From an uncultured Candidatus Micrarchaeota archaeon (GTDB lineage Archaea; Micrarchaeota; Micrarchaeia; Anstonellales; Bilamarchaeaceae), in NCBI GenBank assembly GCA_903828955.1, contig CAIKOA010000008.1:36813-100812 (forward strand): DNA of 64,000 nt. The letters are read 5' to 3'. Both the position numbers and the translations under genes were made by a program. The notes under the pieces were generated by a model. It saw only the letters and a program-made list of their open reading frames with translations. It made no database searches and had not been told where the DNA came from. Positions 3,905 to 59,502 of this stretch are shown here, piece after piece; the first letter of the stretch is position 1; each line of letters opens with the position of its first letter.

Positions 3905-3977
3905 GAGCCCGTGGTCTAGCGGTCAAGACGCCAGCCTTACACGCTGGATATCCCCGGTTCGAATCCGGGCGGGCTCA
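3905..3977 (+). tRNA. tRNA-Val (anticodon TAC)
   Basis: Cloverleaf by hand: acceptor GAGCCCG/CGGGCTC, anticodon arm CCAGC-CTTACAC-GCTGG, T-arm CCCGG-TTCGAAT-CCGGG, discriminator A. No encoded CCA. Confidence 0.85.
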
Positions 3978-4045
3978 TCTGCCCTTTCTTTTTGCAAAAA
4001 GAAAGGGCCGGTTCCCCCAAAGAAAAAGCATTATCGGATATTACT
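3978..4045. repeat. Interspersed A/T-hairpin repeat, copy A, immediately 3' of tRNA-Val
   Basis: Perfect palindrome ccctttctttttgc/gcaaaaagaaaggg followed by cccaaagaaaaagcattatcggatattac. Related copies at 6771, 9351 (inverted), 10616, 29565 and 47326. Confidence 0.7.
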
Positions 4046-4228
4046 CTTAATTTCCTTTTGCAACTCTTTGTACATCTCCTGACGTCGCCCTCGCAACTCC
4101 TTGTGCATCTCCTTACGCTTCTCATTCCTTGATAGTTATTCATAAAAAGTCATTAATAGCAACATTTATATACTTCAATTGAGTAATCATAATGCGGGAT
4201 CGCATTACGCACAAGCACGGTTGTTATT

Positions 4229-5337: not shown

Positions 5338-6753
5338 ATGGGAGAAAGCAAATTCGTTAACGACAAGATAGCGGAATTGGAAAAAGAATTGGAACTTCTC
5401 AAATCCACCCCCAGTGAAGAGGAATATTTCAGGAAAAGAAGCAGCGCCCGGGTAAAAATGCGCGCAGAGCAGATGATGGCCGCCAAGAACCAGGCTTTCG
5501 ACACCGTCGCCCTCTGGGGTCTATATGGAAAAGAAGACATAAAGCGCTACAAATGCTTCACCCTCCCCCTCTTCATGACAACCGCAGGCGGCTCTTACGA
5601 TAGCTTACTTGATGGCGCCCTCCTCCTCTCCTACCAAACCACAAACGACCCGAATAAGGTTTACAGCAGAATCGACAATGTAAACTCCGACCACCTCGCG
5701 TGGAAGTTCGCAGCCTTAGAAGGTTTAGGCTCCCCGGAACTCACCCAGGGCCTCTGCACCTCTTCCGGAATGTCTGCAATCCTCATGACCACAATGGCCT
5801 TCCTTGAGCCCGGTGACAACTTCGTTTCCTCCAACCGCGTTTACGGAGGCACGGAGCAGCTCTTCAACATCACTTACCCGAAATCCGGCTGGAAGGTTAA
5901 ATGGATTACCGAGCCCTGGGACCTTAGAAAATGGGAATCGAAAATAGATGAAAAAACCAAATTCCTATACGTTGAATCCCCGAGCAACCCAACCCTTTTC
6001 GTTGCAGATATTCCCGCGCTCGCAAAGCTTGCGCACTCGCACGGAATTCCGCTAATAGTCGATTCCACTTTAGCCAGCCCAGCGCTCATGCGCCCCCTTG
6101 AACACGGCGCAGACATCGTACTGCATTCCATCTCAAAGGTTTCCAATGGAAGCTGCAGGGCAATCGGCGGCGTAATAGTCGCCAAGGATAAGATCGTAAC
6201 CAAAAATCCCGCCATCGCGCAGGATTTCGTAAACAAATTAAAAGGAGGCCATTTCCGCAACATGGGCCCCTGCCTCTCCCCGTTCAATTCAATGCTGATT
6301 TGGGACGAAATGAGCACAATTAGGATTAGAATGAAGGAGCACTGCGAAAAGGCAATGAAGATTGCAAATTTCCTTAAAACCCACCCAATGATTGAGGCGG
6401 TCAATTACCCCGGGCTCCCCACCCACCCGCAACACGAAGTCGCAAAGAGGCTCATGAAGCTTCCCGACGGCACAAACGGCTACGGCTACCTTCTCTCATT
6501 CAACATAAAGGGAGGCCTGGAAAAAGCGAAGAAATTCGCAGAAGCATTCGATTTCGGAGTCCAGGTTACCCATCTGGGCGGAAGCTACACAGTCTGGGTA
6601 CACAACGCCACAACCACACATGCCCAGATGAGCTCCGAAGAAAGGAAATCCGCAGGAGTTCTCGACAACATGATCCGCTATTCCGTGGGGCTGGAAGGCG
6701 CGGATGACGCAATCAAGGCGCTGGAAAAGGCGCTGGACAAAATCAAGGATTAA
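5338..6753 (+). CDS. PLP-dependent Cys/Met-metabolism enzyme (O-acetylhomoserine sulfhydrylase / cystathionine gamma-synthase family)
   Basis: Fold-type I PLP enzyme pattern: GLCTSSGMSAI...LHSISKVSNGS (Schiff-base Lys) ...; about 470 aa. Confidence 0.75.
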   Translation: MGESKFVNDKIAELEKELELLKSTPSEEEYFRKRSSARVKMRAEQMMAAKNQAFDTVALWGLYGKEDIKRYKCFTLPLFMTTAGGSYDSLLDGALLLSYQTTNDPNKVYSRIDNVNSDHLAWKFAALEGLGSPELTQGLCTSSGMSAILMTTMAFLEPGDNFVSSNRVYGGTEQLFNITYPKSGWKVKWITEPWDLRKWESKIDEKTKFLYVESPSNPTLFVADIPALAKLAHSHGIPLIVDSTLASPALMRPLEHGADIVLHSISKVSNGSCRAIGGVIVAKDKIVTKNPAIAQDFVNKLKGGHFRNMGPCLSPFNSMLIWDEMSTIRIRMKEHCEKAMKIANFLKTHPMIEAVNYPGLPTHPQHEVAKRLMKLPDGTNGYGYLLSFNIKGGLEKAKKFAEAFDFGVQVTHLGGSYTVWVHNATTTHAQMSSEERKSAGVLDNMIRYSVGLEGADDAIKALEKALDKIKD

Positions 6754-6770
6754 GCCTCCGCATCAGTACT

Positions 6771-6836
6771 ATCCGATACTGTTTTTCTTTTGCGTCCTGC
6801 CAGACTTTTCTTTTTACAAAAAGAAAAGGGTGGCAT
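6771..6836. repeat. Interspersed A/T-hairpin repeat, copy B
   Basis: gatactgtttttcttttgcgtcctgccagacttttctttttacaaaaagaaaaggg. Near-identical to the reverse complement of 9351..9412. Confidence 0.7.
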
Positions 6837-7593: not shown

Positions 7594-8310
7594 TTATTTT
7601 GTCTTCACGAACTTGAGCACTTCCTTATCAGTCATTGTCGTGAATTTCGCATCTCCCTTATACGCATAAGCAATCTCAAGGTTCTCAGGCCCAATCTTGC
7701 CTTCGCTGTACTTCTTGAGCGCCTCAATCGCAACCCCTATTGCGGAATCCAGCTTCATCTCCGGGGTATAATTCGCCTCGAGGTATTCATCCACTTCCTT
7801 TTTCGAATTCCCAATCGAATCCCCGAAATAACCGGTCATTGCCCCGCTGGGTTCAGCCTCGAAGAGCTCCGGCCCATTTGGCCCGATTCCCGCAATAAGA
7901 AGGGATACTCCGAATGGGCGGATTCCCCCATACTGGGTGTAAAGCTGCATTATGTCGCAGACCCCCCTTGCAATTGATTCAGGGGAAGCCGGCTCGTTGT
8001 AGGTAAGCCTGTGCCTCTGCGCGTTGCCTCTCGCAACCTCGACAAGCTTCCTTGCATCCGCAATAAGCCCGCTTGCAGTTATGCAGATATTATCATCTAT
8101 CTCGAAAACCTTCTTCAATGAGTCCGGCACAATCAATTTTGAGTGGGTGCTCCGGTAGGCAATTAATGCAACCCCTTCCCTTGTGGCAACCCCCATCGCG
8201 GTTGCCCCCCTTTTCACTGCCTCTTTTGCATACTCGACCTGGAAAAGCCTTCCATCCGGGCTGAATACGGTAATTGCCCTGTCATAAGCTTGCGGTGTAA
8301 CTCCATACAT
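7594..8310 (-). CDS. psmA: Proteasome subunit alpha
   Basis: N-terminal YDRAITVFSPDGRLFQVEYA is the hallmark of 20S proteasome alpha subunits. Confidence 0.95.
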   Translation of the reverse strand: MYGVTPQAYDRAITVFSPDGRLFQVEYAKEAVKRGATAMGVATREGVALIAYRSTHSKLIVPDSLKKVFEIDDNICITASGLIADARKLVEVARGNAQRHRLTYNEPASPESIARGVCDIMQLYTQYGGIRPFGVSLLIAGIGPNGPELFEAEPSGAMTGYFGDSIGNSKKEVDEYLEANYTPEMKLDSAIGVAIEALKKYSEGKIGPENLEIAYAYKGDAKFTTMTDKEVLKFVKTK

Positions 8311-8350: not shown

Positions 8351-9199
8351 TTAAAGCTGCCCAGTATCCGCCTTCTTCTCCAGCATTCCCCCTATCCTCT
8401 TTGCAAGAAAAGCCAATGCCCTCGCCTTAGAAATCTCGACCGCAATAAAAGCAACCGTTGCAGCCGCCAGAAATGCCGCGGCATACCTGGGTTCAAGGCG
8501 CCCTTCAGCCATCCCCTTCAGGAAGGGAAGCCCGGACGCAACCCCTGCCCCCATGCATAATGATATCGTTGATACCGCCCAAAGCTCCGTTTTCCCTCCC
8601 TTCCGCTGCCGCTCAAGCACATCATCCGCCGTATCCCTGCCGAGCTCCCTCCTTAGCACTTTTGCGGATTTATCCGCAGCGAGCATGCTGCTCCGTATGA
8701 ATATGTTTCCCCCCTCCTTAAGTTTCTCCCCGGCCACGATTGCAAGGCCTGCAAGCGCCCTTTCCCGGATCCCCGGAGCCCCGTTTTTCGCAGCCCAGCG
8801 GAGGTATTCCTCTGCCCCTTCCTTCTCATCGACATTCTTATTGTGAAGTGCGGCATGCACGCAAAGTCCCACCCTTCTTTTTCCAAGATATTCCGAAACT
8901 CCGAGCGCGGATTCCCCGTTCCGCATTATAATTTTCTCAGTCGGGAAGAGCTCCTCCATCCCCCCATCCACTATCTGCCCCTTAAGCTTGCGCAGGCTGC
9001 TGCGGCTGGAAAAATCAGAAAGAAATGCAAGTTTCTTCAATGTATCAGAGTTTGCTCCGGCCCTTGTTGCAAACCTGAGGAGCTCCTTTCCCTCCCTTTT
9101 TTCGTCCGAATCCCAGTTCATAAATCTCCAGGAATTCAATCTCTTCCTTCTTTTCTCTGTTTTGTCCAGATAGTAAGAAAGTGTTCTGGCACTATGCAT
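8351..9199 (-). CDS. Hypothetical protein with C-terminal hydrophobic segment
   Basis: 282-aa ORF, no recognisable motif. Possible Sel1-like helical repeat (YLRWAAKNGAPGIRERALAGLAIV). Confidence 0.45.
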   Translation of the reverse strand: MHSARTLSYYLDKTEKRRKRLNSWRFMNWDSDEKREGKELLRFATRAGANSDTLKKLAFLSDFSSRSSLRKLKGQIVDGGMEELFPTEKIIMRNGESALGVSEYLGKRRVGLCVHAALHNKNVDEKEGAEEYLRWAAKNGAPGIRERALAGLAIVAGEKLKEGGNIFIRSSMLAADKSAKVLRRELGRDTADDVLERQRKGGKTELWAVSTISLCMGAGVASGLPFLKGMAEGRLEPRYAAAFLAAATVAFIAVEISKARALAFLAKRIGGMLEKKADTGQL

Positions 9200-9350
9200 G
9201 CCACCTACGTATATGTGGTAAGTATTTTATTCTTATGTATATCCATCTATTTAGATAATCCCTGAAACGGCGAGCCAATTTTCAAATCACGCTATTGTAT
9301 TAAATTCCCCCTCCCCCATACTCCTTTCAGGCGACCAACATGAACTGGCC

Positions 9351-9430
9351 CACCACCCTTTTCTTTTTGTAAAAAGAAAAGTCTGGTGGGACGCAAAAGA
9401 AAAACAGTATGCAGGAATAAAGGTGGAGAT
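9351..9430. repeat. Interspersed A/T-hairpin repeat, copy C (inverted relative to B), flanked by 11-bp direct repeats
   Basis: Direct repeat atgaactggcc at 9340..9350 and 9431..9441 brackets the element. The second copy supplies the start codon of the DUF457 gene. Confidence 0.7.
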
Positions 9431-9895
9431 ATGAACTGGCCGGAACATATGCTCATAGGCGCACTTGCAGGAGTGCTTGTTGCATATTTCCTAGGGGCGG
9501 ATTTGCTCACTTCCGCCCTAATTATTGGAATGGTTTCAGTTTCCGCACTTGCCCCGGACATAGACCACGATTCCTCCAAAATAAGGCAGGCCGCGAACCT
9601 TGCAGTTCCTCTGGCCGCATTCTCCTTTGCAATCACTTCCGCCTGCGAAAACAACCTCCAATGCGTCTTCGCGCACAAGGAATCAATCCTCATAAACGGC
9701 CTTGCAGTAGTGGGCTTGTATATGCTCATAATGACCTTCCTGAAGCCCAGGCACCGCGGGATAATCCATACGCTCAGCGCAGCAGCTGTGTTCGGCCTCC
9801 TCGTCTACATTCTCTCAGATTCCACTTTCGCAATCGCAGGCTTCGCAGGCTATTTCTCACACCTTCTTGCAGACCGGCAGATAAAATTAATCTGA
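9431..9895 (+). CDS. Membrane-bound metal-dependent hydrolase, DUF457 (YdjM-like) family
   Basis: MNWPEHMLIGALAG...APDIDHDSSK...HRGIIHTLS...SHLLADR, the His/Asp pattern of DUF457 multi-pass proteins. ORF 9386.. has an in-frame extension that runs through repeat C. Confidence 0.65.
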   Translation: MNWPEHMLIGALAGVLVAYFLGADLLTSALIIGMVSVSALAPDIDHDSSKIRQAANLAVPLAAFSFAITSACENNLQCVFAHKESILINGLAVVGLYMLIMTFLKPRHRGIIHTLSAAAVFGLLVYILSDSTFAIAGFAGYFSHLLADRQIKLI

Positions 9896-10453: not shown

Positions 10454-10615
10454 CTTCCTTTAATTTTATTTTCCGTTTTTTTTAATCCCAACCCATAAGA
10501 ATGGTCTTATCCATATTTTCCCTGGGAGCTTAGGCGCCTGATGATGAGCAAAGTTTTCCTGAGCGTTTTCTTTAAACGGAATCCTGCGGTGATGAGAAAC
10601 TGGAGCTCTGAGTCA

Positions 10616-10700
10616 CCCCTTTCTTTTTGCGAAAAAGAAAGGTGCGAATCACCCAAAGAAAAAGCATTTTCCAATATTACTTGGGCGCTAGTTGCCTTGC
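10616..10700. repeat. Interspersed A/T-hairpin repeat, copy D, flanked by about 28-bp imperfect direct repeats
   Basis: cccctttctttttgcgaaaaagaaagg...cccaaagaaaaagcattttccaatattac. Flanks: tgatgagaaactggagctctgagtcaccc (10591..10619) and taatgagaaaccggagctctgaatgccc (10701..10728). Confidence 0.65.
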
Positions 10701-10768
10701 TAATGAGAAACCGGAGCTCTGAATGCCCTCATTTAAATTCATTTTCAGCGAGTAATGCCTGTGATAAA

Positions 10769-11368
10769 ATGGGGCTCATGGAAAGAATAAAGCTTTGGTT
10801 CAGGGGGTTCAACTACAAGGAAATTTCTCAAATCGTGAAAGAACTCCAGAAGAATCCTGCAATAGGGGACGCGGCCTTCAATGTGTTCCTGGGTTCCCTG
10901 ATGATGGGCGCGGTGGTTTTCATTTCCATGGCACTAGTCGGCTCAATGCCCGGGGCGGGCTCAGCTGGCGCGGTGGTTTTCATCCCCGCGATCATTTACG
11001 CGGTTGCGATGATTCTAATCGCCATCATCTACTTCTTCGTCAGCGAGGGTGTCCAGTGGGTGCTTGCAAAAGCCCTGGGCGGGAAAGGGGCATACGCGCA
11101 CCAGGTGCAGGTTTCCTCGCTCCCCACCGCTGCGAACATGGTGCTTACTCCAGTCTTTGTAATCCCATTCGTCGGCCCGATTATCTCGATAGTGGTCAGC
11201 TTGTACCGCATCTTCCTGGGCTACCTGATAATCAGGGGGGTCCACGGGCTTTCAAACGTGCGCGCAGCAGCAGTGGTCCTGATACCAGTCGTGCTAGGGA
11301 TAATTGCGTATGTGCTTCTCCTCCTTTACCTGACACCAATGGCGGTCACTACAACGACCCCGGCCTAA
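10769..11368 (+). CDS. Yip1-domain membrane protein
   Basis: Five predicted TM segments after a short cytosolic N-terminus, with the Yip1-like pattern. ORF 10541.. starts inside repeat D. ATG 10769 (MGLMERIK) chosen. Confidence 0.55.
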   Translation: MGLMERIKLWFRGFNYKEISQIVKELQKNPAIGDAAFNVFLGSLMMGAVVFISMALVGSMPGAGSAGAVVFIPAIIYAVAMILIAIIYFFVSEGVQWVLAKALGGKGAYAHQVQVSSLPTAANMVLTPVFVIPFVGPIISIVVSLYRIFLGYLIIRGVHGLSNVRAAAVVLIPVVLGIIAYVLLLLYLTPMAVTTTTPA

Positions 11369-22849: not shown

Positions 22850-22963
22850 TTGCGCTTATATGAAGAGCCCCATAATAAATAGTTTTCCAGATTATAGTGT
22901 ATGTAAGCGGTTCTTCATGAGCAAAACAGAATCTTTATAAACCGTTCTATGCACACTATTCTC

Positions 22964-23081
22964 TCGCCAACGGCCATAGGGAGCTGGAAACACCCGATCC
23001 CATCTCGAACTCGGAAGTTAAGCGGCTCTACGGCTTTATCTGTACTGCCCTAAGGGTGGGAAAATGGGCTGCTGTTGGCAC
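22964..23081 (+). rRNA. rrf: 5S rRNA, copy 1
   Basis: GCCAACGGCCATAGGGAGC...CCCGAACTCGGAAGTTAAGC...GTACTGCCCTAAGGGTGGGAA...GCTGTTGGC. Helix I closes the 5' and 3' ends. TTTATAA TATA box 25 nt upstream (22934..22940). Confidence 0.85.
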
Positions 23082-23087
23082 TTATAT

Positions 23088-24605
23088 TCATCTAGGCCTT
23101 TTTATCAGACGCTCTTTAAGCCCGTCTTGTTTTCCCGCCATCTCCTCTGCCAACTCCCCCTCGGGGCCCTTGTAATAGCCGATTACCTTGTTGTCCTTGC
23201 CGTACAATCTCACTCCGTCTATTATTGTTCCCCTTTCCTTTGCGTACATTTGAAGCAGGGGCCATATTTTTTCTCCATTGTATTCATACATATGATCATA
23301 GTCGATAAGGTACATCTTGTTTGTTTTCGTGTCCCTTGCAATTGAAATAGAATGCCCCTGATCCTTACGAAAAAGCTCCACAGTGTACGCCTCTGCTCCA
23401 TTCATCTGCAGGAACTTGGTTGCCAAGGAACTTATATTGCCGCAAATGCCCGCATCAGCCGTTTTCCTGCTCAAAATCCATTCCCGGATGCCCCTGTACG
23501 CGTTATCAACCCCTATCTCCTCCAACGTCCTTGCGTCTTCAGAATATGGTTTGTTTACGGCATCCGCCAGGGGGCCACTGTAATTCTTTTCCCCTGCCCA
23601 TGCCAGTGCTTGCGCAGCCGCGACTAAATCAAAAAAAGAGCTTCCCTTGTATTTTTTTGCAAACTCTCCGAATGTTTCGGAGCTTTTCATCCTCTCCGTA
23701 AAAAGGAAAAGCGCCGGAGTCCAGTGGGCCGTTAGCTCAGCAGTATCGTTCCTCGTGCCGCCCTTCTCCCGCCCCACCGCAAACCCCCTCTCTATTTTTA
23801 CTTTGCCCGTTTCCTTTTCTCCAAGGCGGAACTTTACCCCCACGCCGATTTCATCCGCAAACATTTCGTTTTGCGCCTTCGCCCCCCATACGTATATCTC
23901 AGGCCCCACGTACTTGCCTTCTAAGGAAACCGCAGCCTCGCCCCCGGTTTTAAACGGCGTATGGAGCATCTCCACACGGATGCTGGCGCGGTCAAGGTGT
24001 ATCACCACCCCAGCCCTCGCCTCGTCATGGTGGGGGATTGAGGCCTTCGCCCCTGCATACTCATACGGGCGGTCCGGTCCAAAGAATACCTGCTCCTTCG
24101 CATAAAAAATCAGGGGTTCGAAAATGAAAGCAGCCCCTCCCGAAGCGGTAAAGTGGGGGGATTCATAGGAAAATACGCCCCCTCCCTGCGCCCACACTCC
24201 GGCTTCCACCCCCAGCCTTAGCCCGTACCCCCCGTCGCTCATTGTTTCCCAAACACCCCCTGCGCTTATGTTCTTGAACATGGAGGTGCGCACCTCGCTG
24301 GTTCCCGGGATTATTGGCATGCTTACGCTTCCGTACAGGTCAAAGGCGCCCACTTTCCCCCCTGCTTCCAGCGACGGAGTTACAAAGAAAAGCGGCCTGT
24401 AATAGTTCAGCTCCAGCGCGCCCGCCCCGGCCCCTATTTGCACCGGTCCGAAAACACCCTTCACCTCTCCCTTGGTAACCTCTCCGGCCTGGCTGCGCCC
24501 GACATTCGACAATTCGAATTTTAGATAATCCAAAAACGATTTTTCCCCTGTTTTTACCGGAACAGTTTCCTTTAGTTCAGCGGATTCTTCCGATTTTTGG
24601 TCCAT
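23088..24605 (-). CDS. Hypothetical protein: Gly-rich beta-strand N-terminal half + C-terminal Cys/His/Asp transglutaminase-like segment
   Basis: 505-aa ORF lying exactly between the two 5S copies. C-terminus GICGNISSLATKFLQMNGAEAYTVELFRKDQGHSISIARDTKTNKMYLIDYD (C..H..D spacing of the papain/TGase fold). No signal peptide. Confidence 0.55.
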   Translation of the reverse strand: MDQKSEESAELKETVPVKTGEKSFLDYLKFELSNVGRSQAGEVTKGEVKGVFGPVQIGAGAGALELNYYRPLFFVTPSLEAGGKVGAFDLYGSVSMPIIPGTSEVRTSMFKNISAGGVWETMSDGGYGLRLGVEAGVWAQGGGVFSYESPHFTASGGAAFIFEPLIFYAKEQVFFGPDRPYEYAGAKASIPHHDEARAGVVIHLDRASIRVEMLHTPFKTGGEAAVSLEGKYVGPEIYVWGAKAQNEMFADEIGVGVKFRLGEKETGKVKIERGFAVGREKGGTRNDTAELTAHWTPALFLFTERMKSSETFGEFAKKYKGSSFFDLVAAAQALAWAGEKNYSGPLADAVNKPYSEDARTLEEIGVDNAYRGIREWILSRKTADAGICGNISSLATKFLQMNGAEAYTVELFRKDQGHSISIARDTKTNKMYLIDYDHMYEYNGEKIWPLLQMYAKERGTIIDGVRLYGKDNKVIGYYKGPEGELAEEMAGKQDGLKERLIKRPR

Positions 24606-24762
24606 GCAACTTCAATTCTAGATTACGCACCCAAATTTAAAATGGGTATTGGCGCGTGCATGGAAATGGATTCGAGCCCTTATCCGGAGGAGCGGGGGAA
24701 TTCCTGCGGTTCAGCATGAGCGAAACAGAATCTTTATTACTCGTTCTATGCGCACTATTCTC

Positions 24763-24880
24763 TCGCCAACGGCCATAGGGAGCTGGAAACACCCGATCCC
24801 ATCTCGAACTCGGAAGTTAAGCGGCTCTACGGCTTTATCTGTACTGCCCTAAGGGTGGGAAAATGGGCTGCTGTTGGCAC
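24763..24880 (+). rRNA. rrf: 5S rRNA, copy 2
   Basis: Identical to copy 1 over the mature region. The duplicated block extends from about 24711 to 24890 (about 190 bp, about 95% identity with 22911..23090), including the upstream promoter-like segment. Confidence 0.85.
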
Positions 24881-24961
24881 TTATATTTACTTACTTATTC
24901 TGATTCTTGCGTTTAGATAGAATTTTATACCTCACCGCATTATTCGCCATCAGGTGAAAAA

Positions 24962-25999: not shown

Positions 26000-26199
26000 C
26001 CGCTTCCCCCTCGCATATTACTTATATAAACCAAACGGTCTCCTTTCACAAATATATGGTAAAACACCGCGTAAGGAGATGTTCAAAGCGCATCAAAGGC
26101 GGCGTCAGGAGATGCAAAAAGAGTGACAAAGAAAAGTGCGCCGCGGGTTTTGCGCCACTGCTTTTGCCCGGCTAAGACAGAAGGACAAAAGCGGTGAAT

Positions 26200-26269
26200 G
26201 CGGTCGCCGGGATTCGAACCCGGGTCGCGAGATTGGCAACCTCGTATCCTACCGCTAGACTACGACCGC
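26200..26269 (-). tRNA. tRNA-Gly (anticodon GCC)
   Basis: Reverse complement: GCGGTCG-TA-GTCTAGCGGTAGGATAC-GAGGT-TGCCAAT... anticodon loop TTGCCAA; T-arm CCGGG-TTCGAAT-CCCGG. tttataaaca TATA about 50 nt upstream (26316..26325). Confidence 0.8.
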
Positions 26270-26385
26270 TAAGACTTGCGTTAGCCCATTATGCGGAAAA
26301 ACGTTTTTAAAATCAAACCTAAATCTTTATAAACATCTCTTTGCATAATTTATAACAAGACAATCTATCCGGGTCGGAGCCACCC

Positions 26386-29453: not shown

Positions 29454-29564
29454 ATGCCACTTGCTAATAAACGGCATAATCATTTGCACCCGTTTATTTT
29501 AAAAAACAAATCCGTGCGCGTTGCGTAAGGAGATGTTTAAAGAGTTGCAAAGCATAAGGAGAGT

Positions 29565-29600
29565 AATATTCGACACTGTTTTTCTTTTAGGTGTGCTAGC
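29565..29600. repeat. Interspersed repeat, partial copy E (no hairpin half)
   Basis: gacactgtttttcttttaggtgtgctagcc matches copy F (gatactgtttttcttttaggtgcgctagcc) at 32/36 positions. Confidence 0.55.
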
Positions 29601-29703
29601 CAAAAATAATATATTGAAAAATAGCAAGAAACAGGAGGAACCCCTAAGGATTTTTGGATACCCGTTTTTGTCGTAAGTAAGCAGATGGCCAAAAACGGGA
29701 TAT

Positions 29704-29773
29704 GCGGCCGCCGGGATTCGAACCCGGGTCGTTGGCTTGGAAGGCCAAAATCCTACCGCTAGACTACGACCGC
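29704..29773 (-). tRNA. tRNA-Gly (anticodon TCC)
   Basis: Reverse complement: GCGGTCG-TA-GTCTAGCGGTAGGAT-TTTGGC-CTTCCAA-GCCAA...CCGGG-TTCGAAT-CCCGG-CGGCCGC. Confidence 0.8.
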
Positions 29774-29851
29774 TAAAAAGCAAGTTATTGTTGCATAAAT
29801 TCACTTTTTAAACATTCCATTACAATATCAACCAATTTCTGAGGTATTATC

Positions 29852-46569: not shown

Positions 46570-47325
46570 ATACACCTGATTATCGGAGTCGACCCCGGAG
46601 TTTACACCGCATATGCAGCCATTGATTTGAATGGAAACCTGATTGCTTCAGGCTGCGAAAAAGAGGCAAGCCACGAAAGGATTGTAGAAATAATCTCCCA
46701 TCTTGGAAAGCCTTCGCTAATCGCAACCGATGTTTGCCCTGCACCTGATTTTGTGCAAAAGGTCGCAGCCCGTTTCCATGCGCGATTGCACATCCCTGAA
46801 CGCAGCATGCTTGTTGAAAAGAAAAAAGAGATTGGAAAGGAAATCCAGAACCCGCATGTGCGCGATGCGCTTGCCGCTGCGGTAAAAGCATACCGGCATT
46901 ATGAGAACACCTTGCGCAGGATTGAGCATTCTGATACTGCCTTCGACAAGGAACTCCTGAAGCACCTCTTTATCCAGGGTTATTCTGTAAAGAACGCAGA
47001 ATTCATGCTTGCAAAGCGAGAAGAGAAAAAGTTAGAACAGAGCGGGGAAATTGAAGACCGGAGGACACGGACTCCGGAGCAGGTAAAAAAAGACGAGCGC
47101 CTTCTTTCAATCCTTTCTGAGAACGAAAACCTCCGCAAAGCCCTTGAACTCGAGCGCGCCCGCCGCGCTGATGCGGAAGAGAAATTAAAGAGGGCGGGAA
47201 CTTCCCGCGTTGTAGAAGTGAGCCGCGACCGCGAAGTCCAGAGGCTGCAGGGGCAAATCGCAAGGATGCAGTCCTTTATTTTCCACCTGAAAAACAGAAG
47301 TGAAAAGAAGAAAATGAAGAAATGA
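46570..47325 (+). CDS. COG2433/DUF460-like protein: RNase-H-fold (RuvC/YqgF-like) N-domain + coiled coil; no canonical start codon before the conserved motif
   Basis: Frame reads IHLIIGVDPGVYTAYAAIDLNGNLIASG (YqgF/RuvC N-terminal motif) from 46570. No ATG/GTG/TTG in frame between the upstream stop (46486) and TTG 46627, which the ORF track uses as the start. Confidence 0.5.
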   Translation: MHLIIGVDPGVYTAYAAIDLNGNLIASGCEKEASHERIVEIISHLGKPSLIATDVCPAPDFVQKVAARFHARLHIPERSMLVEKKKEIGKEIQNPHVRDALAAAVKAYRHYENTLRRIEHSDTAFDKELLKHLFIQGYSVKNAEFMLAKREEKKLEQSGEIEDRRTRTPEQVKKDERLLSILSENENLRKALELERARRADAEEKLKRAGTSRVVEVSRDREVQRLQGQIARMQSFIFHLKNRSEKKKMKK

Positions 47326-47440
47326 TATTTGATACTGTTTTTCTTTTAGGTGCGCTAGCCTTTTCTCCTTGAGCCGTTGCTCAAGGGAAGAAAGCGAAGC
47401 TTTCTCAGATTTTACAAAAAGAAAAGGATGGCAAATGGGG
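47326..47440. repeat. Interspersed A/T-hairpin repeat, copy F (long variant with internal insertion)
   Basis: gatactgtttttcttttaggtgcgctagcc ... tttacaaaaagaaaagg. Same ends as copy B, with about 45 extra bp inside. Confidence 0.6.
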
Positions 47441-47518
47441 GATCTGTGATTTGAACACAGATAACAAGCTCCCAAAGCTTGCAGCATACCAGGTTGGCTC
47501 AATCCCCCGTGAGAGAAT

Positions 47519-47911: not shown

Positions 47912-48531
47912 AACTGCCCCATTGTTATGTTCAATTGCCCTTCCCCAATTTCAAGCACAACGCTCCGCAGGTTTTTTCCCGCAGGGAGCTGCACAACCGT
48001 TGTTTCCCCGATTTTCTGCTTCCCTTCAACATCGTGGATGTGCCCGCAGATAAGCAAGAGGGGGCGCGCCTCCTCCATTATTTTGCGCACGGAATGGCTT
48101 CCCGCATGCAAACCGGCCTCCACCTCATCCAGAAGCCCATACGGAGGCACGTGTGTAAGCAATATGGTTTTCCCGTCTATAGGCAAATCCCTCATCTGCG
48201 CATAGATTTCTTCTTCGCGCATCTCCCCAGGGGTTCCAAAGGGGGTGGGGGGCGTAAAACCAAAACCAACTATGTTGAACCCTCCGGCAATTTCCATTCT
48301 CTGCTTGTGCAGGCAGCGCGGGTATTTATCCGGGGAATCCAATTCCTCGCTGTTTCCCGGAACCCAGTAAATATTGTCAGAAATTGAGAGCAAATCCTCC
48401 ATGAAGGAAACGCTTCTTCCTATGTCTCCTGCAATCAGCACATAGTCATATTTGGAAGCAACTGCCCGCAACCTGTCAAGAACCGCTTCTTCCCCATGGA
48501 TGTCAGCCAGAAGGAGTATCTTCATCTTCAT
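47908..48531 (-). CDS. Calcineurin-like metallophosphoesterase
   Basis: Motifs LLLADIHG, AGDIG, GNSE, GHIHD. Start set at MKMKILLL (48531) so that it does not overlap the Nop5-like gene. Confidence 0.8.
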   Translation of the reverse strand: MKMKILLLADIHGEEAVLDRLRAVASKYDYVLIAGDIGRSVSFMEDLLSISDNIYWVPGNSEELDSPDKYPRCLHKQRMEIAGGFNIVGFGFTPPTPFGTPGEMREEEIYAQMRDLPIDGKTILLTHVPPYGLLDEVEAGLHAGSHSVRKIMEEARPLLLICGHIHDVEGKQKIGETTVVQLPAGKNLRSVVLEIGEGQLNITMGQL

Positions 48532-50080
48532 GCCTGCCCCTCGCCCTCGCGGCATTTTCATTAATCTCTTTCAGGCGTTTTTCGAACTTGTCCTTAATAA
48601 GCGGCCCAATGAACCTTTTCGTGTAAACATCCGCTTTTGCAGCAAGCGAAATCTTTGTTGCAAGTGCGCGCGCAATCTTTCCCCGGACACCTTTAGGCGC
48701 AGTTGAAATTGATGCGTGCTGGAAAATTACCCCGTGTTTAGGGGGCGCGATGTTCCGGTTGCGCAGATGCTTGAAGAGCGCCTTCTCTGCGCCCATTACC
48801 TGGACTGTGCTCGCAGGCAGTACCGCAAGCTTCTTCATACCGCCGGCAACTGAAATCAGTTTTCCCGCGAGTTTAGCCCCGACAAGATAATGGAGGTTCG
48901 GGCATTCTTCGCGCGCAACGTCGTCCATGTGCTTCTCGTGCCTGTTCATGAGCGCAAAAATGGCTTCAATCTCTTGCGCCATTTTCTTCATATTCTCAAC
49001 ATCTTTTTCGTTGAAATTTCCGCCCACGCTGTTTTTCCCTGCCTCAGCGATCTGGCGCGCCTTCCCTTCGCCAACATATTTTGCAACCGCCTCGATTGGC
49101 ACGTCTTCTTTCGTAATCATATTTATGATGAGCGCGTAATTCCTCTTGTTCTCCACGTTCAATTCAGGGAAATAGAGCCCGTAAATCTCCTCGAGCCTTT
49201 CCCCTAGCTGGTTTGCAACGCGCTCTTCCTCTTCGATGCAATTAGAGAGCTGCGCTAGGTACATGTCTCTCCCGCGCAAAACCTCGGTGGTCTCTTCGCG
49301 CGCCCTCTTCATGAATTTTGAGCGGTCAAACCTTCCTTCGCTTCCTTCCCCCTCAGAAGGGCTTCTTTCGCGGAAGCTTCCGCCTTCCCTCCGTTCCTGG
49401 TTCCTGAAGCCGATGCTCCCCCCTCTGCGTTCCCCTCCGCTAAATGGGCGCCTCTCCCCTCCAAATGAGCGCCCGCCGCCCCGGTCCCCGCGGTATCCGC
49501 CGCCAGAAGGCCTCGGCCGATCACCATAATCTCTGCGTTCTCCACCTTCTCCCTGTCTTTCTCCGCTAAATGGGCGCCGTTCATTTCCTTCGCGCCTTCC
49601 TTCTCCACGGAAGCTGCCGCCAGAAGGCCGGTCACTATACCCTCTGCGTTCTCCGCTAAATGGGCGCTTCTCTCCGCCTTCCCTAGGGCGGCCTCCTTCT
49701 CTATCTCCTCCTGAAGGCCTGTCTCTATACCCACCACGATCTCCAGAGCGGTATCCTTCCCCCCTCCTTCCTTCGCCGCGGTATCCGCCGCCAGAAGGCC
49801 TATCGCTATACCCCCTATGTTCTCCGCCTTCGCGGGGGCGATGCCCGCCTTCCCCCAGTCTTTCTCCGCCTTCGCGCCTTCCTTCGCCGCGGTACCCGCC
49901 TTCACGTTTTCCGCCGCCCAAAGAACTCCGCTCGTTGCCTTCCCTTCTTTCTTCTCCGCGGTAGCTTTTCAAATCCCTTTTGCCCCCGCTGGAGCCTCCT
50001 CCAGTGAAGTTTCCCCTATTCCTGTCCCGTCCCCATTTTTTTTCTCCCATTTTAATCATGCCTCGTATGTGGTTTCCCAC
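48503..50080 (-). CDS. Nop5/Nop56/58-like protein (NOSIC + Nop domains) with about 275-aa N-terminal RGG/GAR repeat region
   Basis: C-terminal half has NOSIC (LGERLEEIYGLYFPEL) and Nop domain (GAKLAGKLISVAGGMKKLAVLPASTVQVMGAEKALF...). N-terminal half is tandem RGG/RPFSGER/YSDRPSGG repeats, visible as about 100-bp DNA repeats (ctccgctaaatgggcgc x3). Confidence 0.8.
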   Translation of the reverse strand: MGNHIRGMIKMGEKKWGRDRNRGNFTGGGSSGGKRDLKSYRGEERREGNERSSLGGGKREGGYRGEGRREGGERLGEGGHRPREGGEHRGYSDRPSGGGYRGEGRRGEGYRSGDRGGYRDRPSGGDREGGRPREGGEKRPFSGERRGYSDRPSGGSFRGEGRREGNERRPFSGERQGEGGERRDYGDRPRPSGGGYRGDRGGGRSFGGERRPFSGGERRGGSIGFRNQERREGGSFRERSPSEGEGSEGRFDRSKFMKRAREETTEVLRGRDMYLAQLSNCIEEEERVANQLGERLEEIYGLYFPELNVENKRNYALIINMITKEDVPIEAVAKYVGEGKARQIAEAGKNSVGGNFNEKDVENMKKMAQEIEAIFALMNRHEKHMDDVAREECPNLHYLVGAKLAGKLISVAGGMKKLAVLPASTVQVMGAEKALFKHLRNRNIAPPKHGVIFQHASISTAPKGVRGKIARALATKISLAAKADVYTKRFIGPLIKDKFEKRLKEINENAARARGRHEDEDTPSG

Positions 50081-56041: not shown

Positions 56042-56496
56042 TGATGGGGGGTTGCTTGGGATGAAACACTTTAGGGGGCGCTCCCCCTGAAGGGTTCTTC
56101 ACGGTTTCCGTCTGGGTTCCCTACACCACAATCGTCTCAAAAGGAACCATCTGAAGGAGCCCGCAAATCCATTCCGGATCGGCCTTTTTATGCTTTTCAC
56201 CAACTGTTTTTCAGAATACGAGAGAGGGAAAAACGCCCCCGGTGGAAAAGCCCAAAAATGCGGGTTTTTTCAGGAGCGGTGCAACAAATTTTCAGAAGTA
56301 TTCTCCGTCTGAGGGGCAAAACCTTTTTAAACACGTATATTCATATCTATCCTTTACCTTTTACGCTTCGAGCGCCCTCTTCGACGAATGGCGCGATGAA
56401 AAACGAATTTATTCATATAGGGTAGGCTATCTCTTCACGTTGGGGAGACAGCCGGCGTTTATAACGCCAAAAGAGTGTGAAGTAACTAGCTATGAA

Positions 56497-59396
56497 GTTT
56501 GGATATGTTGCATCCATGTAGTGGATGACTAGGCTAGTGCCAGCAAACTCACGTGGTAAGCTGCGATAAGCTTGGGTTAGGTGCACGCAACCATTGACCC
56601 CAAGATCTGAGTGAGTGCCCCTCGGGAAACTGAGGCGCACAGCTACCCCGGGAATTGAAACATCTAATTACCGGGTGGAAAAGAAACCAATTGGGATTCG
56701 GTTAGTAAGTGGACTGAAAGCCGAACAGGCCGTGCTGAATTCCCTGCAGCAATGCAGGGCAAATGTGGCGGGGAATATCCATTCTCTGAGCAGAAGTCCC
56801 CTGGAATGGGGTGCCATAGCGAGTGAAAGCCTCGTATGCGAAGGAGTGTGGAGTGAACCAAAACGAGTACCGTCCACCGGATAGCGGGCGGGAATATGGG
56901 GGTATCAACCTCCAAGCCTAAATATTGGGCATTAGACCGATAGCGAATGAGTAACGCGAGTGAACGTTGAAAAGGACCCCGGAAGGGGTGTTAAAAGAAC
57001 CTGAAACTACATGGAGACAGGAAGGTAAGGCATGAAAGGGTTATATGTTTGCCGAAGTGAATCCCAGAAATGGTTGGATCGAGGCAAAAGCACCAGTGTC
57101 TTATCATTCTTCTCGAAGCAAGAGCCAGGGAGTTTATCTGTGTGGCGAGACGAAAGTCGAAGCGAAAGCGAGCGTCCGCAGGTAACCAGGGACATCCTCT
57201 GAAAAGGGGACCAGTCACACAGATCAGACCCGAAGCCGGCGCGATCTACTCCTGACCAGGGTGAAGCCAGCCTGTCCGTTGGTGGAGGCCCGCAACCAGT
57301 GATGGTATATTCCTCTTGGGTGAGTCAGGTGTAGGGGTGATAGTCCAGTCGAGCTTGGCAATAGCGGGTTCCCCTCGAAATGTATCTCAGTACAGCGTCT
57401 TCCGAGGATGATAACGGGGTAGAGCACTGAATGGGAAGAGCGGCTCCGAAAGGTGTCACTTCCCTATCAAACTCCGAATTCGTTATCTCCGTAGACGAAG
57501 GCAGTCGGGTTCACGGGGTAAGCTTGTGAACCCTTACGGGAACGACCGTACGTGAGGTTAAGGGCCCTAAATTCTGGTTAAGTGTGAATACAAAGGAGCT
57601 TCTATCCTTAGACAGCTGGAAGGTAGGCTTAGAAGCAGCCATCCTTTAAACAACGCGTAATAGCGGACCAGTCGAGGATGCAGGTTCCGAAAATTGACGG
57701 GGCTAAACCAGATCCCGATACCCCACCCGAGCCAAAAGCTCGTGGAGTAGGGGGGCGAACGGGGCGGGTAGAAGCAAGGCGGTAACGTCTTGTGGACCGT
57801 TCTGTTATGAATATCCTGGTGTCAGTAGTAGCATATCCAAGTGAGAATCTTGGACGTCTGATAGGGCACGGTTTCCTCAGCCATGTTTGTCAGCTGAGGG
57901 TTAGGCGATCCTAAGTGGTGAGGTAACACCGGAGCCACGAAAGGGAAGCAGGTTAATATTCCTGCCCAACAGAGGTAGATGCGGCAACGCAAGTGCGGTT
58001 TTTGACCGCTTGGGATAAGCTGAGCCCGGGAGACCGGGTTTAACAGCGATACATCCATCGAGTCTTATCATGAGGAGAAGTGGATGAAACGCTGGAATAG
58101 GAGCAATCTTTGGCCGATTCCTGAGTGCCATGAAAAGAAAACCGTTCCGATCCTCTATTTCCGTACCTAGAACCAATACAGGTGCCCCTGGCTGAAAAGG
58201 CCCAGACGTGTTAAGACAACCCAGGCAAGGGAACTCGGCAAAATAGTCCCGTAACTTAGGAAGAAGGGATGCCTACCATCTTGTAGATGGTAGGTGGCAC
58301 TGACAAGGGGAGTGCGACTGTTTATCAAAAACACAGATCACCGCAAGGTCGTAAGGCTTAGTATGGTGGTCGACGCCTGCCCACTGCCAGTACCTGAACG
58401 CCCCATTCAAGGGGAAGAAGGGCTGGTAAAGAGCGGGGGTAACTCTGACCCTCTTAAGGTAGCGTAATACCTCGCCGCTTAATTGGCGGCTTGCATGAAC
58501 GGCGTAACGCCACTCCTACTGTCCCTGCCTGGGACTTAGTGAACTCATTGCCCGGTGAAGATACCGGGGACTTCCAGAGGGAAACGAAGACCCCGTGGAG
58601 CTTTACTATAGCCTGATGTTGCTGTATCGGTGTGGCTACCGAGCGTAGATGGGAGCCGTCGAGACCGTATCTCCGGATACGGTGGAGGCAAAATTGAAAC
58701 ACCATCTAGTTATGCTGATACTGCTTACCCGCAAGGGGACAGCATCAGGTGGATAGTTTGGCTGGGGCGGTACGCCCTCGATAGAAAAACAAGGGCGCCC
58801 AATGTTCTGCTCAGGCGGGTCAGAAATCCGCTGTAGAGGGTTAAAGACAAATGCAGGGCTGACTGTGTTCCTAAAAGCGTGGAACGCAGAGACGAAAGTC
58901 GGGCTTAACGAACCTTAGTATTCTATTGATGGGAATCTAAGCTGTCAGACAAGCTACCCCGGGGGTAACAGGCTCGTCGCGGGCGAGAGTACACATCGAC
59001 CTCGCGGCTTGGTACATCGCTGTCGGCTTGGGACATCCTGGTGGTGCAGGAGCCACCAAGGGTTGGGTTGTACATCCATTAAAGTCCCACATGAGCTGGG
59101 TTCAGTACGTCGCGAGACAGTACGGTAGTATCTTCTGGAAGTGTAGGTTCTTGAGGGGAAGGAACTTTGAGTACGAGAGGAACGGAGTCCCGGGGCCTCT
59201 GGTGTATCGGTTGTGTCAATGCATTGCCGAGCAGCTACGCCCTCCGTCGATAAGACCTGAAAGCATCTAAGGTCGAAGCGACACCCAAAACGAGGAACCA
59301 AAGACCGCCTATAGTAGATAGGTTTGATAGGAGCGGGGTGTAAGTCCTTAGCTAACGCGAGGGATTCAGCCTGCGCTTACTAAAGGTATAATCCCA
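56497..59396 (+). rRNA. rrl: 23S (large subunit) rRNA, about 2.9 kb, not linked to 16S or 5S
   Basis: 5' region GTGGATG...AAGCTGCGATAAGC...GGGAATTGAAACATCTAATTACC (domain I). Sarcin-ricin and peptidyl-transferase-like segments further in. Ends bracketed by a complementary processing stem (56483..56496 / 59397..59412). All ORFs called inside were rejected. Confidence 0.85.
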
Positions 59397-59502
59397 AATT
59401 TCATAGCTAGTTATCTTTTTCATTCTATTTTATTTTACTTCGTCTTAGCGTGAGCGCTGCCCAGTTCCTATCCCAAAATTAAGTTTAAGTTAAATCCGCG
59501 TT

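Follow-up and report, generated by a model that had tools for sequence, protein, structure and literature searches.

The 64-kb stretch of contig CAIKOA010000008.1 analysed here (the window), from an uncultured Candidatus Micrarchaeota archaeon, contains an archaeal 23S rRNA gene, two 5S rRNA genes, seven tRNA genes and genes for the TATA-binding protein (TBP), a proteasome alpha subunit, Nop56/58 and aminoacyl-tRNA synthetases. The subject of this work is a short repeat, copy C of a six-copy family (A-F) in the window, and the gene at whose start it lies, ydjM, which encodes a DUF457 membrane hydrolase. Between ydjM and a divergently oriented gene of 282 amino acids (8351-9199, minus strand) lies an intergenic region, 9200-9430. 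The 11-mer ATGAACTGGCC has exactly two occurrences in the window, and these are offset by 91 bp and bracket the 80 bp at the ydjM end of this region (Table 1). An earlier note, made from the sequence alone, had described this pair and assigned the right copy to the ATG (MNWPEH...) of the DUF457 gene. Both observations were confirmed, and public gene calls on contigs with an identical protein place the start at the same ATG, 9431. The left copy does translate as had been proposed, to MNWPTTLFFL and a stop (ATG AAC TGG CCC ACC ACC CTT TTC TTT TTG TAA), and the stop of this 10-codon open reading frame (ORF), at 9370-9372, falls within a hairpin loop.

The 11-mer pair by itself is not improbable, and its weight comes from its context. 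Markov-2 simulations predict ~3 exact 11-mer pairs at a distance of at most 150 bp for a sequence of 64 kb; 24 were observed, most of them inside genuine tandem repeats. The pair at ydjM is significant because it brackets a member of a repeat family and because its ends match those of a 91-bp indel relative to orthologous empty sites; the chance of finding such flanks within 20 nt of a family copy is roughly estimated at ~1e-4 per copy. That flanking duplications are a general signature of indels in these genomes was rejected, since a comparison of the window with the syntenic relative L001 showed ~40 other indels of 12 bp or more, none of them with a flanking repeat longer than 3 bp. The long duplication at copy C is therefore not background.

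Element-free relatives had been predicted to carry a single 11-mer, and this is what we observed in seven close relatives, none of which has the element. Their YdjM proteins are 92% (L159), 90% (L007), 89% (L160), 87% (L001), 86% (L008), 85% (L009) and 84% (L006) identical to that of the window at the amino acid level, and the single 11-mer is identical in four of them and differs by one or two substitutions in three. Five (L159, L160, L007, L009 and L006) have the upstream context TATTAAAT ... ATG/GTG in common with the window, including, in four of the five, the leader CAGGCGACCAAY, which is deleted in L006; all five run straight through ...AACTGGCC into GGAACATATG without the element. The alignment of the window with these relatives (A3) accordingly contains one clean gap of 91 bp (80 + 11). 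In L001 and L008 a P-type ATPase gene occupies the upstream side in place of the window's context, and again one 11-mer and no element were found. A single ATG/GTG-AAYTGG start without element is also present in ~19 more distant orthologues (39-58% identity) recovered by a metagenome scan. Of the two contrary patterns named in the earlier note, neither was seen: both 11-mers were present at no empty site, and no relative had the element without a flanking duplication. As all homologues, which are labelled Micrarchaeota, Bilamarchaeaceae or Anstonellales by their sources, begin with MNW, the right-hand copy corresponds to the ancestral ydjM start.

Insertion in the lineage of the window is the parsimonious direction of change, because loss would take many independent precise deletions. 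The insertion is also much younger than the split from the relatives, since the two 11-mers are identical while ydjM (77-85% nucleotide identity to the relatives) has diverged to a dS of 0.7-0.9. The gene is intact and its dN/dS relative to the same relatives is 0.05-0.13, which indicates that it is under purifying selection and still functional. In four ENA assemblies, contigs with an identical protein show ydjM at the same distance, 231 bp, from the upstream gene. The insertion is therefore not an assembly artefact; the spacing suggests that it is present in four assemblies of the same species, and it appears fixed in that population. Insertion, duplication and retention of an intact start, as the earlier note had envisaged them, are thus borne out by the empty sites, whereas the mobile route of the element is something that we infer.

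Table 1. Positions of the duplication, copy C, the other family copies and neighbouring genes in the window.
Feature	Position	Strand	Remarks
TATA-like box TATTAAAT	9297..9304	+	putative ancestral ydjM promoter, followed by the conserved leader ...CAGGCGACCAAC
Left copy of 11-bp duplication	9340..9350	+	ancestral ydjM start position; contiguous with the upstream context of empty-site relatives
10-codon ORF (MNWPTTLFFL-stop)	9340-9372	+	opens at the left 11-mer
Hairpin of copy C	9349..9390	+	outer stem CCCACCA/TGGTGGG; inner stem TTTTCTTTTT (9359-9368) / AAAAAGAAAA (9371-9380)
Inserted 80-bp element, copy C	9351..9430	+	clean gap in alignment A3; absent from all relatives
Second purine tract of copy C, AAAAGAAAAA	9395..9404	+	mirror of the purine arm of the hairpin; third block
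Right-hand 20 nt of copy C, GCAGGAATAAAGGTGGAGAT	9411..9430	+	not shared with other copies; replaces the family tail
Right copy of 11-bp duplication	9431..9441	+	functional ydjM start; homologues all begin MNW...
ydjM (PF04307, DUF457 membrane hydrolase), 154 aa, intact	9431..9895	+	Pfam E=4.5e-16
Copy A	3978..4045	+	directly 3' of tRNA-Val (3905-3977); tail abuts stop of a convergent small gene; no flanking repeat
Copy B	6757..6835	-	nearest relative of copy C, core 56/58 identical; missing from L001
Copy D	10612..10681	+	directly 3' of the C/D-box sRNA (10537-10613)
Brackets of copy D	ATGAGAAACTGGAGCTCTGA 10592-10611, ATGAGAAACCGGAGCTCTGA 10703-10722		second is a partial duplicate of the 3' half of the sRNA
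Copy E	29562..29600	-	purine tract and tail only; ~100 nt downstream of tRNA-Gly(tcc)
Copy F	47323..47428	-	long form after tRNA-Pro (47436-47508); ~43-nt two-hairpin module (47367-47409) in the hairpin loop
Probable C/D-box small RNA (sRNA)	10537-10613	+	box C ATGATGA 10541-10547, D' CTGA 10559-10562, C' TGATGA 10590-10595, box D CTGA 10608-10611
Nop56/58 gene	48503-50059	-	

The insertion probably changed the level of ydjM expression, judging from the sequence. The TATTAAAT box lies at -43 to -36 from the ATG at 9340; its ATTAAAT part (9298-9304) is invariant in the window and the five A3 relatives, while its first T is an A in L006. Its position, and similar A/T boxes upstream of other window genes, suggest that it functions as a promoter. 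In most orthologues the ATG is preceded at ~25-35 nt by an A/T box but by no Shine-Dalgarno (SD) sequence, so that orthologous ydjM looks leaderless or short-leadered. The insert of the window, by contrast, contains an SD-like GGTGGAG at 9422-9428, 2 nt before the ydjM ATG, and SD sequences of the GGTG type are found upstream of many window genes. The right 11-mer leaves ydjM with its ATG and N-terminus intact, and the SD sequence comes from the insert's right end. The ancestral promoter, leader and start would now drive the 10-codon ORF that ends in the hairpin loop, and transcripts would have to cross this hairpin, with its T5 run, before reaching ydjM. Expression of ydjM would then depend on read-through from the old promoter, with initiation at 9431 directed by the SD sequence. 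An upstream ATG at 9386 had also been proposed; that codon is in frame but is GTG. It sits in the 3' arm of the hairpin without an SD sequence and is unlikely to be used, in agreement with the public gene calls.

A family model matches copy C at 9353-9419 (nhmmer, E=3e-18). The 5' part of the family has a pyrimidine tract (TTTTCTTTTT or TTTCTTTTT), optionally preceded by an outer stem, then a loop of 2-4 nt and the complementary purine tract; the 3' part consists of an 11-14-nt spacer, a second purine tract with C or G after it, and a tail (CAGTAT or GCATTAT, then CGGATATTACT). In copy C the hairpin, detected as inverted repeat I1, dominates both the minimum free energy and the centroid folds. 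Copies B and C have the same left end, YRCCACCCTTTTC, and a length of 76-80 nt, and the two differences in their cores amount to one compensatory change in the outer stem, G-C to A-T. Copy B is flanked by TCC (3 bp) or by GCCTCC/GCATCC (6 bp with one mismatch), and no flanking repeat was detectable at copies A, E and F. The 20-bp flanking repeat of copy D was rejected as a second clean target-site duplication (TSD), since relatives that bear the element at that site have neither the second repeat nor the Yip1 gene present there in the window, and the repeat is a partial duplicate of the 3' half of the C/D sRNA. Comparison of the copy A locus yielded one non-identical homologue with a long contig, L161, which is not syntenic. 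In the equivalent 12 kb there is one family copy in L001, as against three in the window.

The family is usually found with an RNA gene (a tRNA or a C/D sRNA) on one side and, on the other, a protein gene that converges on it with its 3' end. For copies A, B, E and F and the copy D of L001, the tail lies 0-15 nt from the stop of the convergent gene, and the hairpin side is turned towards an RNA gene or the promoter that comes next. Only copy C stands at the 5' end of a gene. The T-tracts on both strands face both incoming directions of transcription, which fits archaeal oligo-T termination, and they could act as terminators of that type. None of the copies was matched by an Rfam family, either at the gathering threshold or with E<=5, and a viral origin of the repeat was rejected, with no matches in viral contigs. 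Relatives of 58-100% identity have in common a conserved unit, GGCTAG(G)CGCACCYAAAAGAAAA(A)C (L132 4640-4690; window 29575-29600 and 47335-47360). In L132 a TATA box, GATTTAAAT, comes after this unit, 24 nt ahead of the ATG of the next gene. The purine tract may, as this arrangement looks, double in some contexts as a promoter element resembling the B recognition element (BRE).

The tracts of the family follow a mirror layout in every copy. Copies A and D read 3T-C-5T / 5A-G-3A / 3A-G-5A, the third block being a mirror and not a direct copy; the corresponding blocks are 4-5 / 5-4 / 4-5 in copies B and C and 3-6 / 6-3 / 3-6 in L009, and in L132 the purine arm is 4-3 and the third block 3-4. A generic finder for a pyrimidine (Y) arm, a purine (R) arm and a mirrored R block returned exactly copies A-D, that is, four loci against 0.017 expected from 60 Markov-2 simulations. 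As read from these tracts, the mirror relation is beyond what duplication or inversion can generate, and it is what an intramolecular triplex would require (R·R-Y on this strand, Y·R-Y on the other).

A comparable layout is described for the intrastrand triplex motifs (TM; BoxC/PIT) of bacteria by Holder et al. (2015, NAR; PMC4666352). There, the E. coli motif TM_ECO is given as CCCTCNCCC-N3-6-GGGNGAGGG-N3-GGGNGAGGG, and the motifs are intergenic, multi-copy, unlinked to transposons and associated with rearranged loci. The Micrarchaeota family has the same succession on one strand of pyrimidine arm, short loop, purine arm, second loop and mirrored purine tract, so that there are three consecutive blocks of which the third is the mirror, and its tracts of 9-10 nt, perfect in copies A-D, are within the 6-15 nt with at most one mismatch that define the published stems. 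It is likewise intergenic (A-D all are, save C at its gene start), over-represented, highly similar between copies, without an associated transposon and linked to locally rearranged regions. The ITxF definition allows 1-6 nt for both loops; loop 1 of the family has 2-4 nt, but loop 2 has 11-14 nt and is partly paired, as in B and C it holds the 3' arm of the outer stem. The family further differs from BoxC/PIT/TM in its A/T-rich stems (TTTTCTTTTT), its conserved ~17-nt tail, its archaeal host and the position of its copies beside tRNA and sRNA 3' ends. The present case documents a de novo insertion together with its 11-bp target duplication, and nothing comparable was found in the parts of PMC4666352 consulted.

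A pattern scan of a genome collection, which required all three blocks, was permissive and returned look-alikes from many phyla; it does not define a host range, and because of that requirement the occurrence of the layout across phyla is an ascertainment-biased lead and not a survey. Among the matches listed, the same layout, in multiple copies and with lineage-specific outer stems, occurs in ANME-1, Nanoarchaeia, Altiarchaeota, Selenomonadaceae, Lentisphaerae, Verrucomicrobia and others. Mirror agreement beyond the positions forced by the pattern was 0.72, 0.45, 0.38 and 0.40, against 0.43, 0.28, 0.27 and 0.28 for shuffled partners, and no Rfam family was found at 18 look-alike loci from seven lineages, Nanoarchaeia among them. 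Families with TTTCTTTTT tracts were seen, again among the matches listed, in ANME-1 (L013, L017, L049, L069, L085), Selenomonadaceae (L021-L092), Lentisphaerae (L018, L087) and Verrucomicrobia (L088, L095); in Selenomonadaceae an intergenic repeat of ~190 nt, present more than 20 times per metagenome-assembled genome, has the layout at its 5' end. We consider the Micrarchaeota family best filed as an archaeal, A/T-rich variant of the intrastrand-triplex-type small repeats, one that behaves like a miniature inverted-repeat transposable element (MITE) without qualifying as one.

MITEs and similar repeats (Correia/NEMIS, RUP, ERIC and the archaeal MITEs of Sulfolobus and haloarchaea) are below 200 bp, non-coding, multi-copy and hairpin-forming, with target duplication, and MITE-type repeats can provide the genes beside them with promoters, terminators or ribosome-binding sites. 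For most families of insertion sequences (IS), 11 bp is a long target duplication. The Micrarchaeota family resembles MITEs in being short, non-coding, multi-copy and hairpin-forming, in its duplication-flanked insertion and in its capacity to supply a ribosome-binding site, but it lacks terminal inverted repeats, no cognate transposase was found in the window, and its duplication varies (11 vs 3-6 bp). Rickettsia palindromic elements (RPEs) are tolerated in genes through in-frame translation as extra peptide segments. Copy C is like them a small palindromic repeat that landed inside a protein-coding gene without destroying it; unlike in RPEs, it is the duplicated start codon, with an SD sequence carried by the insert, that rescued ydjM. 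A further parallel is offered by transposed archaeal tRNA introns of the bulge-helix-bulge (BHB) type, near-identical short sequences that arise at new sites at the DNA level (Fujishima et al. 2010, summarised in PMC4090602). They share with copy C the appearance of a near-identical short sequence at a new archaeal site, and the family motif lies inside tRNA genes of other DPANN contigs, but there is no BHB at the ydjM junctions and the window copies are outside tRNA genes. On those other contigs, ARAGORN recovered a tRNA-Ser (L028 ~6000-6200, -) and a tRNA-Gln (L127 ~7650-7850, -) only after a motif-bearing segment of at least 100 nt had been removed. Introns in the T-loop were suspected in L019 (2760-2870), L111 (3045-3150) and L116, the first two by eye, and ARAGORN did not confirm any of the three.

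As to how copy C arrived, we regard integration at a staggered break as the most likely mechanism and templated insertion as the second. The account that we favour, and consider fairly probable as a whole, is that an ~80-bp multi-copy repeat was inserted 11 bp into the ydjM coding sequence as a non-autonomous unit at a staggered break, with ATGAACTGGCC duplicated on both sides, and that ydjM has since been expressed by read-through and SD-dependent initiation. A non-autonomous mobile unit would have integrated at such a break in ydjM, and fill-in of the 11-nt overhangs would have yielded the 11-bp duplication. A discrete mobile unit is favoured by the shared left end, similar length and near-identical core of copies B and C and by the absence of B from L001. 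In agreement with a MITE-like nature, the repeat is short and non-coding, occurs six times in 64 kb and varies in presence between relatives, B and C being absent from syntenic ones. Elements of the IS200/IS605-derived PATE type and REP/REPIN insert without target duplication beside a fixed tetra- or pentanucleotide and go with a Y1 transposase or RAYT. The family does not fit these classes, with the 11-bp duplication at C and no Y1 transposase or RAYT in the window. The targets of both B and C have GAAYTGG just 5' of the junction, a hint only, given two events.

Several observations weigh against this account. The ends of copy C share only CCACC(C)TTT (8 of 9 nt) and those of copy B have no comparable match; TSD length is not constant either, so that with 3-6 bp at B and 11 bp at C a fixed-length TSD is not a property of the family. 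Among 46 ATG-started ORFs of at least 110 amino acids in the window, Pfam identified no transposase, integrase, reverse transcriptase or Cas protein, and no donor for the right-hand 20 nt (GCAGGAATAAAGGTGGAGAT) was found in the window or in ~160 fetched loci. Only two family insertions, B and C, can be dated. An internal promoter is also conceivable. The E. coli TM is reported to form a triplex in vitro but no stable triplex in vivo and to have neither promoter nor terminator activity (PMC4666352), and the triplex and terminator functions suggested for the Micrarchaeota family are read from its sequence.

The presence of copy C could, in principle, be ancestral, with later loss from the relatives by precise deletion between the 11-bp repeats, or the 11-mer pair could be a chance one. 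Precise deletion can be mediated by short direct repeats, and the chance expectation for such pairs given above is not small, but the 7 close and ~19 distant orthologues are all without the element, the protein of the window nests among those of element-free relatives (92%, 90%, 89%... identity), the 11-mers have stayed identical despite the synonymous divergence of 0.7-0.9, and the ends of the indel coincide exactly with the 11-mer. We hold both forms of this explanation to be scarcely credible. Much more weight must be given to a template switch, in which replication or break repair stalled at or near ydjM and the nascent strand copied ~80 nt from another copy of the hairpin- and triplex-prone repeat and returned 11 nt upstream of its point of departure without any transposase. 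This is a serious rival, although we think it the less likely course. In its favour, the copy D locus is rearranged in every lineage examined (inverted in L009, with gain of Yip1 in the window and with nested inserts in L001, L131 and L133), and triplex motifs have been reported with rearranged loci (PMC4666352). It would also accommodate the flanking repeats of varying length, which measure 11 bp at C and 3-6 bp at B, while repeats of 14 and 18 bp bracket two unrelated inserts within the neighbouring C/D sRNA of L133 relative to L132 (both of them relatives of 58% identity), as well as the absence of a mobilising enzyme from the window, and GAAYTGG at the B and C targets could be its microhomology. 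The discreteness of B and C, their common left end and their near-equal length are, however, better predicted by a mobile unit; the junction of C (GGCC/CACCACCC) is not derivable from that of B (GATGCC/ACCC) by simple microhomology, and no template for the right-hand 20 nt was found in the window or in the ~160 fetched loci.

The right end of copy C, unlike the tails of the other copies, and its well-placed SD sequence would be explained if ydjM had recombined ectopically with another locus of this genome that already carried [element]-GGTGGAGAT-ATGAACTGGCC, for example a ydjM paralogue, by a homologous join on the right and an illegitimate one on the left. Our view of this genome is limited to 64 kb, which leaves room for such a locus, but the window has no second ydjM-like start and none of ~26 orthologous or homologous loci has the element or such an SD sequence upstream; we regard this origin as improbable. 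Still more doubtful is that the insert is a BHB intron-like unit, excised from the ydjM transcript by the splicing endonuclease so that the original mRNA is restored. This was tested because tRNA genes on other DPANN contigs (L028 tRNA-Ser, L127 tRNA-Gln) contain the hairpin and purine-tract motif; besides, Micrarchaeum has an endonuclease of broad specificity (PMC3239211), and 'transposition' of tRNA introns is documented, with its mechanism stated to be unknown (PMC4090602). However, the fold is dominated by a simple hairpin, and a scan of all splice-site pairs around 9320-9460 for a 4-bp helix flanked by 3-nt bulges with outer helices gave no BHB that would excise 91 nt or any other frame-restoring segment. 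RNA-level excision of copy C was therefore rejected. Integration of a mobile unit at a staggered break remains the reading that we prefer.

The surroundings of the family copies vary considerably between relatives. The C/D-box sRNA next to copy D, which has a weak Rfam match to archaeal sR3 (E=0.013, below the gathering threshold), is conserved in L001, L009 (inverted), L131, L132 and L133. In L009 (1247-1440) the module of sRNA and element is opposite in orientation to the flanking genes when compared with the window and L001, and it has two tandem tail modules. The two extra inserts in the sRNA of L133 (4490-4945, compared with L132 4470-4560) have the direct repeats TGATGATGAGCTTTGTTT (18 bp) and AACTGGAGCTCTGA (14 bp), and the second of them (AACTGGAGCTCTGA) directly adjoins the triplex-type element. 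Downstream of copy D lies a lineage-specific Yip1-domain gene (10769-11368) that is absent at this position from L001, L009, L132 and L133; it is preceded by the partial duplicate of the sRNA 3' half (10699-10722) and by its own TATA-like box, ATTTAAAT (10730-10737). The Yip1 region was compared at window 10682-11368, L001 7286 and L009 1489. A two-hairpin module of ~41-43 nt, TCTGAGAAAGC-TTCG-CTTTCTTC / CCTTGAGC-AACG-GCTCAAGG, is found at 47367-47409 (-) in the window, 7200-7240 in L001 and 3975-4018 in L131. It is nested in the loops of copy F and of the copy D of L001 and has another context in L131, and its first stem shows a compensatory change (AAAGC/GCTTT in F, AAATC/GATTT in L001). To judge by its sequence, this module seems to be another mobile or structured unit, smaller still than the first.

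In L001 (3320-5905) a gene for a P-type cation ATPase separates ydjM from the homologue of the 282-amino-acid gene. In L007, L008 and L009 this ATPase gene is directly upstream of ydjM, and the window and L006 lack it. Elsewhere in the window, the two 5S rRNA genes are inside a 182-bp repeat (96% identical; 22907-23088 and 24706-24887, 1.8 kb apart), and the 23S rRNA gene (56494-59402) stands alone, with no 16S or 5S gene adjoining. The Nop56/58 ORF contains dense direct repeats with 90-126-bp spacing (49435-49900, -), the source of many of the short-range exact repeats in the window. Small paralogous ORFs or repeats with RKEMFK-like motifs occur at 4046-4200 (-), 26069-26131 and 29480-29560, convergent to tRNA genes and each followed by an element tail, and there are two tRNA-Gly paralogues (26178-26272 and 29682-29776, 81% identical). 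These similarities suggest a duplicated cassette of a tRNA and a small gene.

A bolder idea, which we put forward only as a speculation and think rather unlikely, is that the A/T-rich three-block repeats in this group of Micrarchaeota are self-spreading triplex elements, which without a dedicated transposase would propagate by structure-induced breaks or template switching and leave long, variable duplications. RNA of the convergent strand (U-tract, U-tract, loop, A-tract) could form a U·A-U/C+·G-C triple helix at mRNA 3' ends; if true, this would be an archaeal counterpart of 3'-end protection of the ENE/MALAT1 type.

The ydjM locus provides a clean, datable insertion of a BoxC/PIT-like triplex-type repeat for which both the filled and the empty sites are known. 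Such repeats have been linked to genome instability (PMC4666352), and in the sources consulted we found no account of how they spread. The locus further indicates that a long target duplication can rescue a gene that is hit in its first codons, as the start codon is regenerated while the element adds a ribosome-binding site; ydjM, probably short-leadered or leaderless before, is now led by an SD sequence and preceded by a hairpin and a small ORF. The small genomes of DPANN archaea are usually considered poor in mobile DNA. For these archaea, the present findings indicate active small-repeat dynamics around tRNA and sRNA genes.

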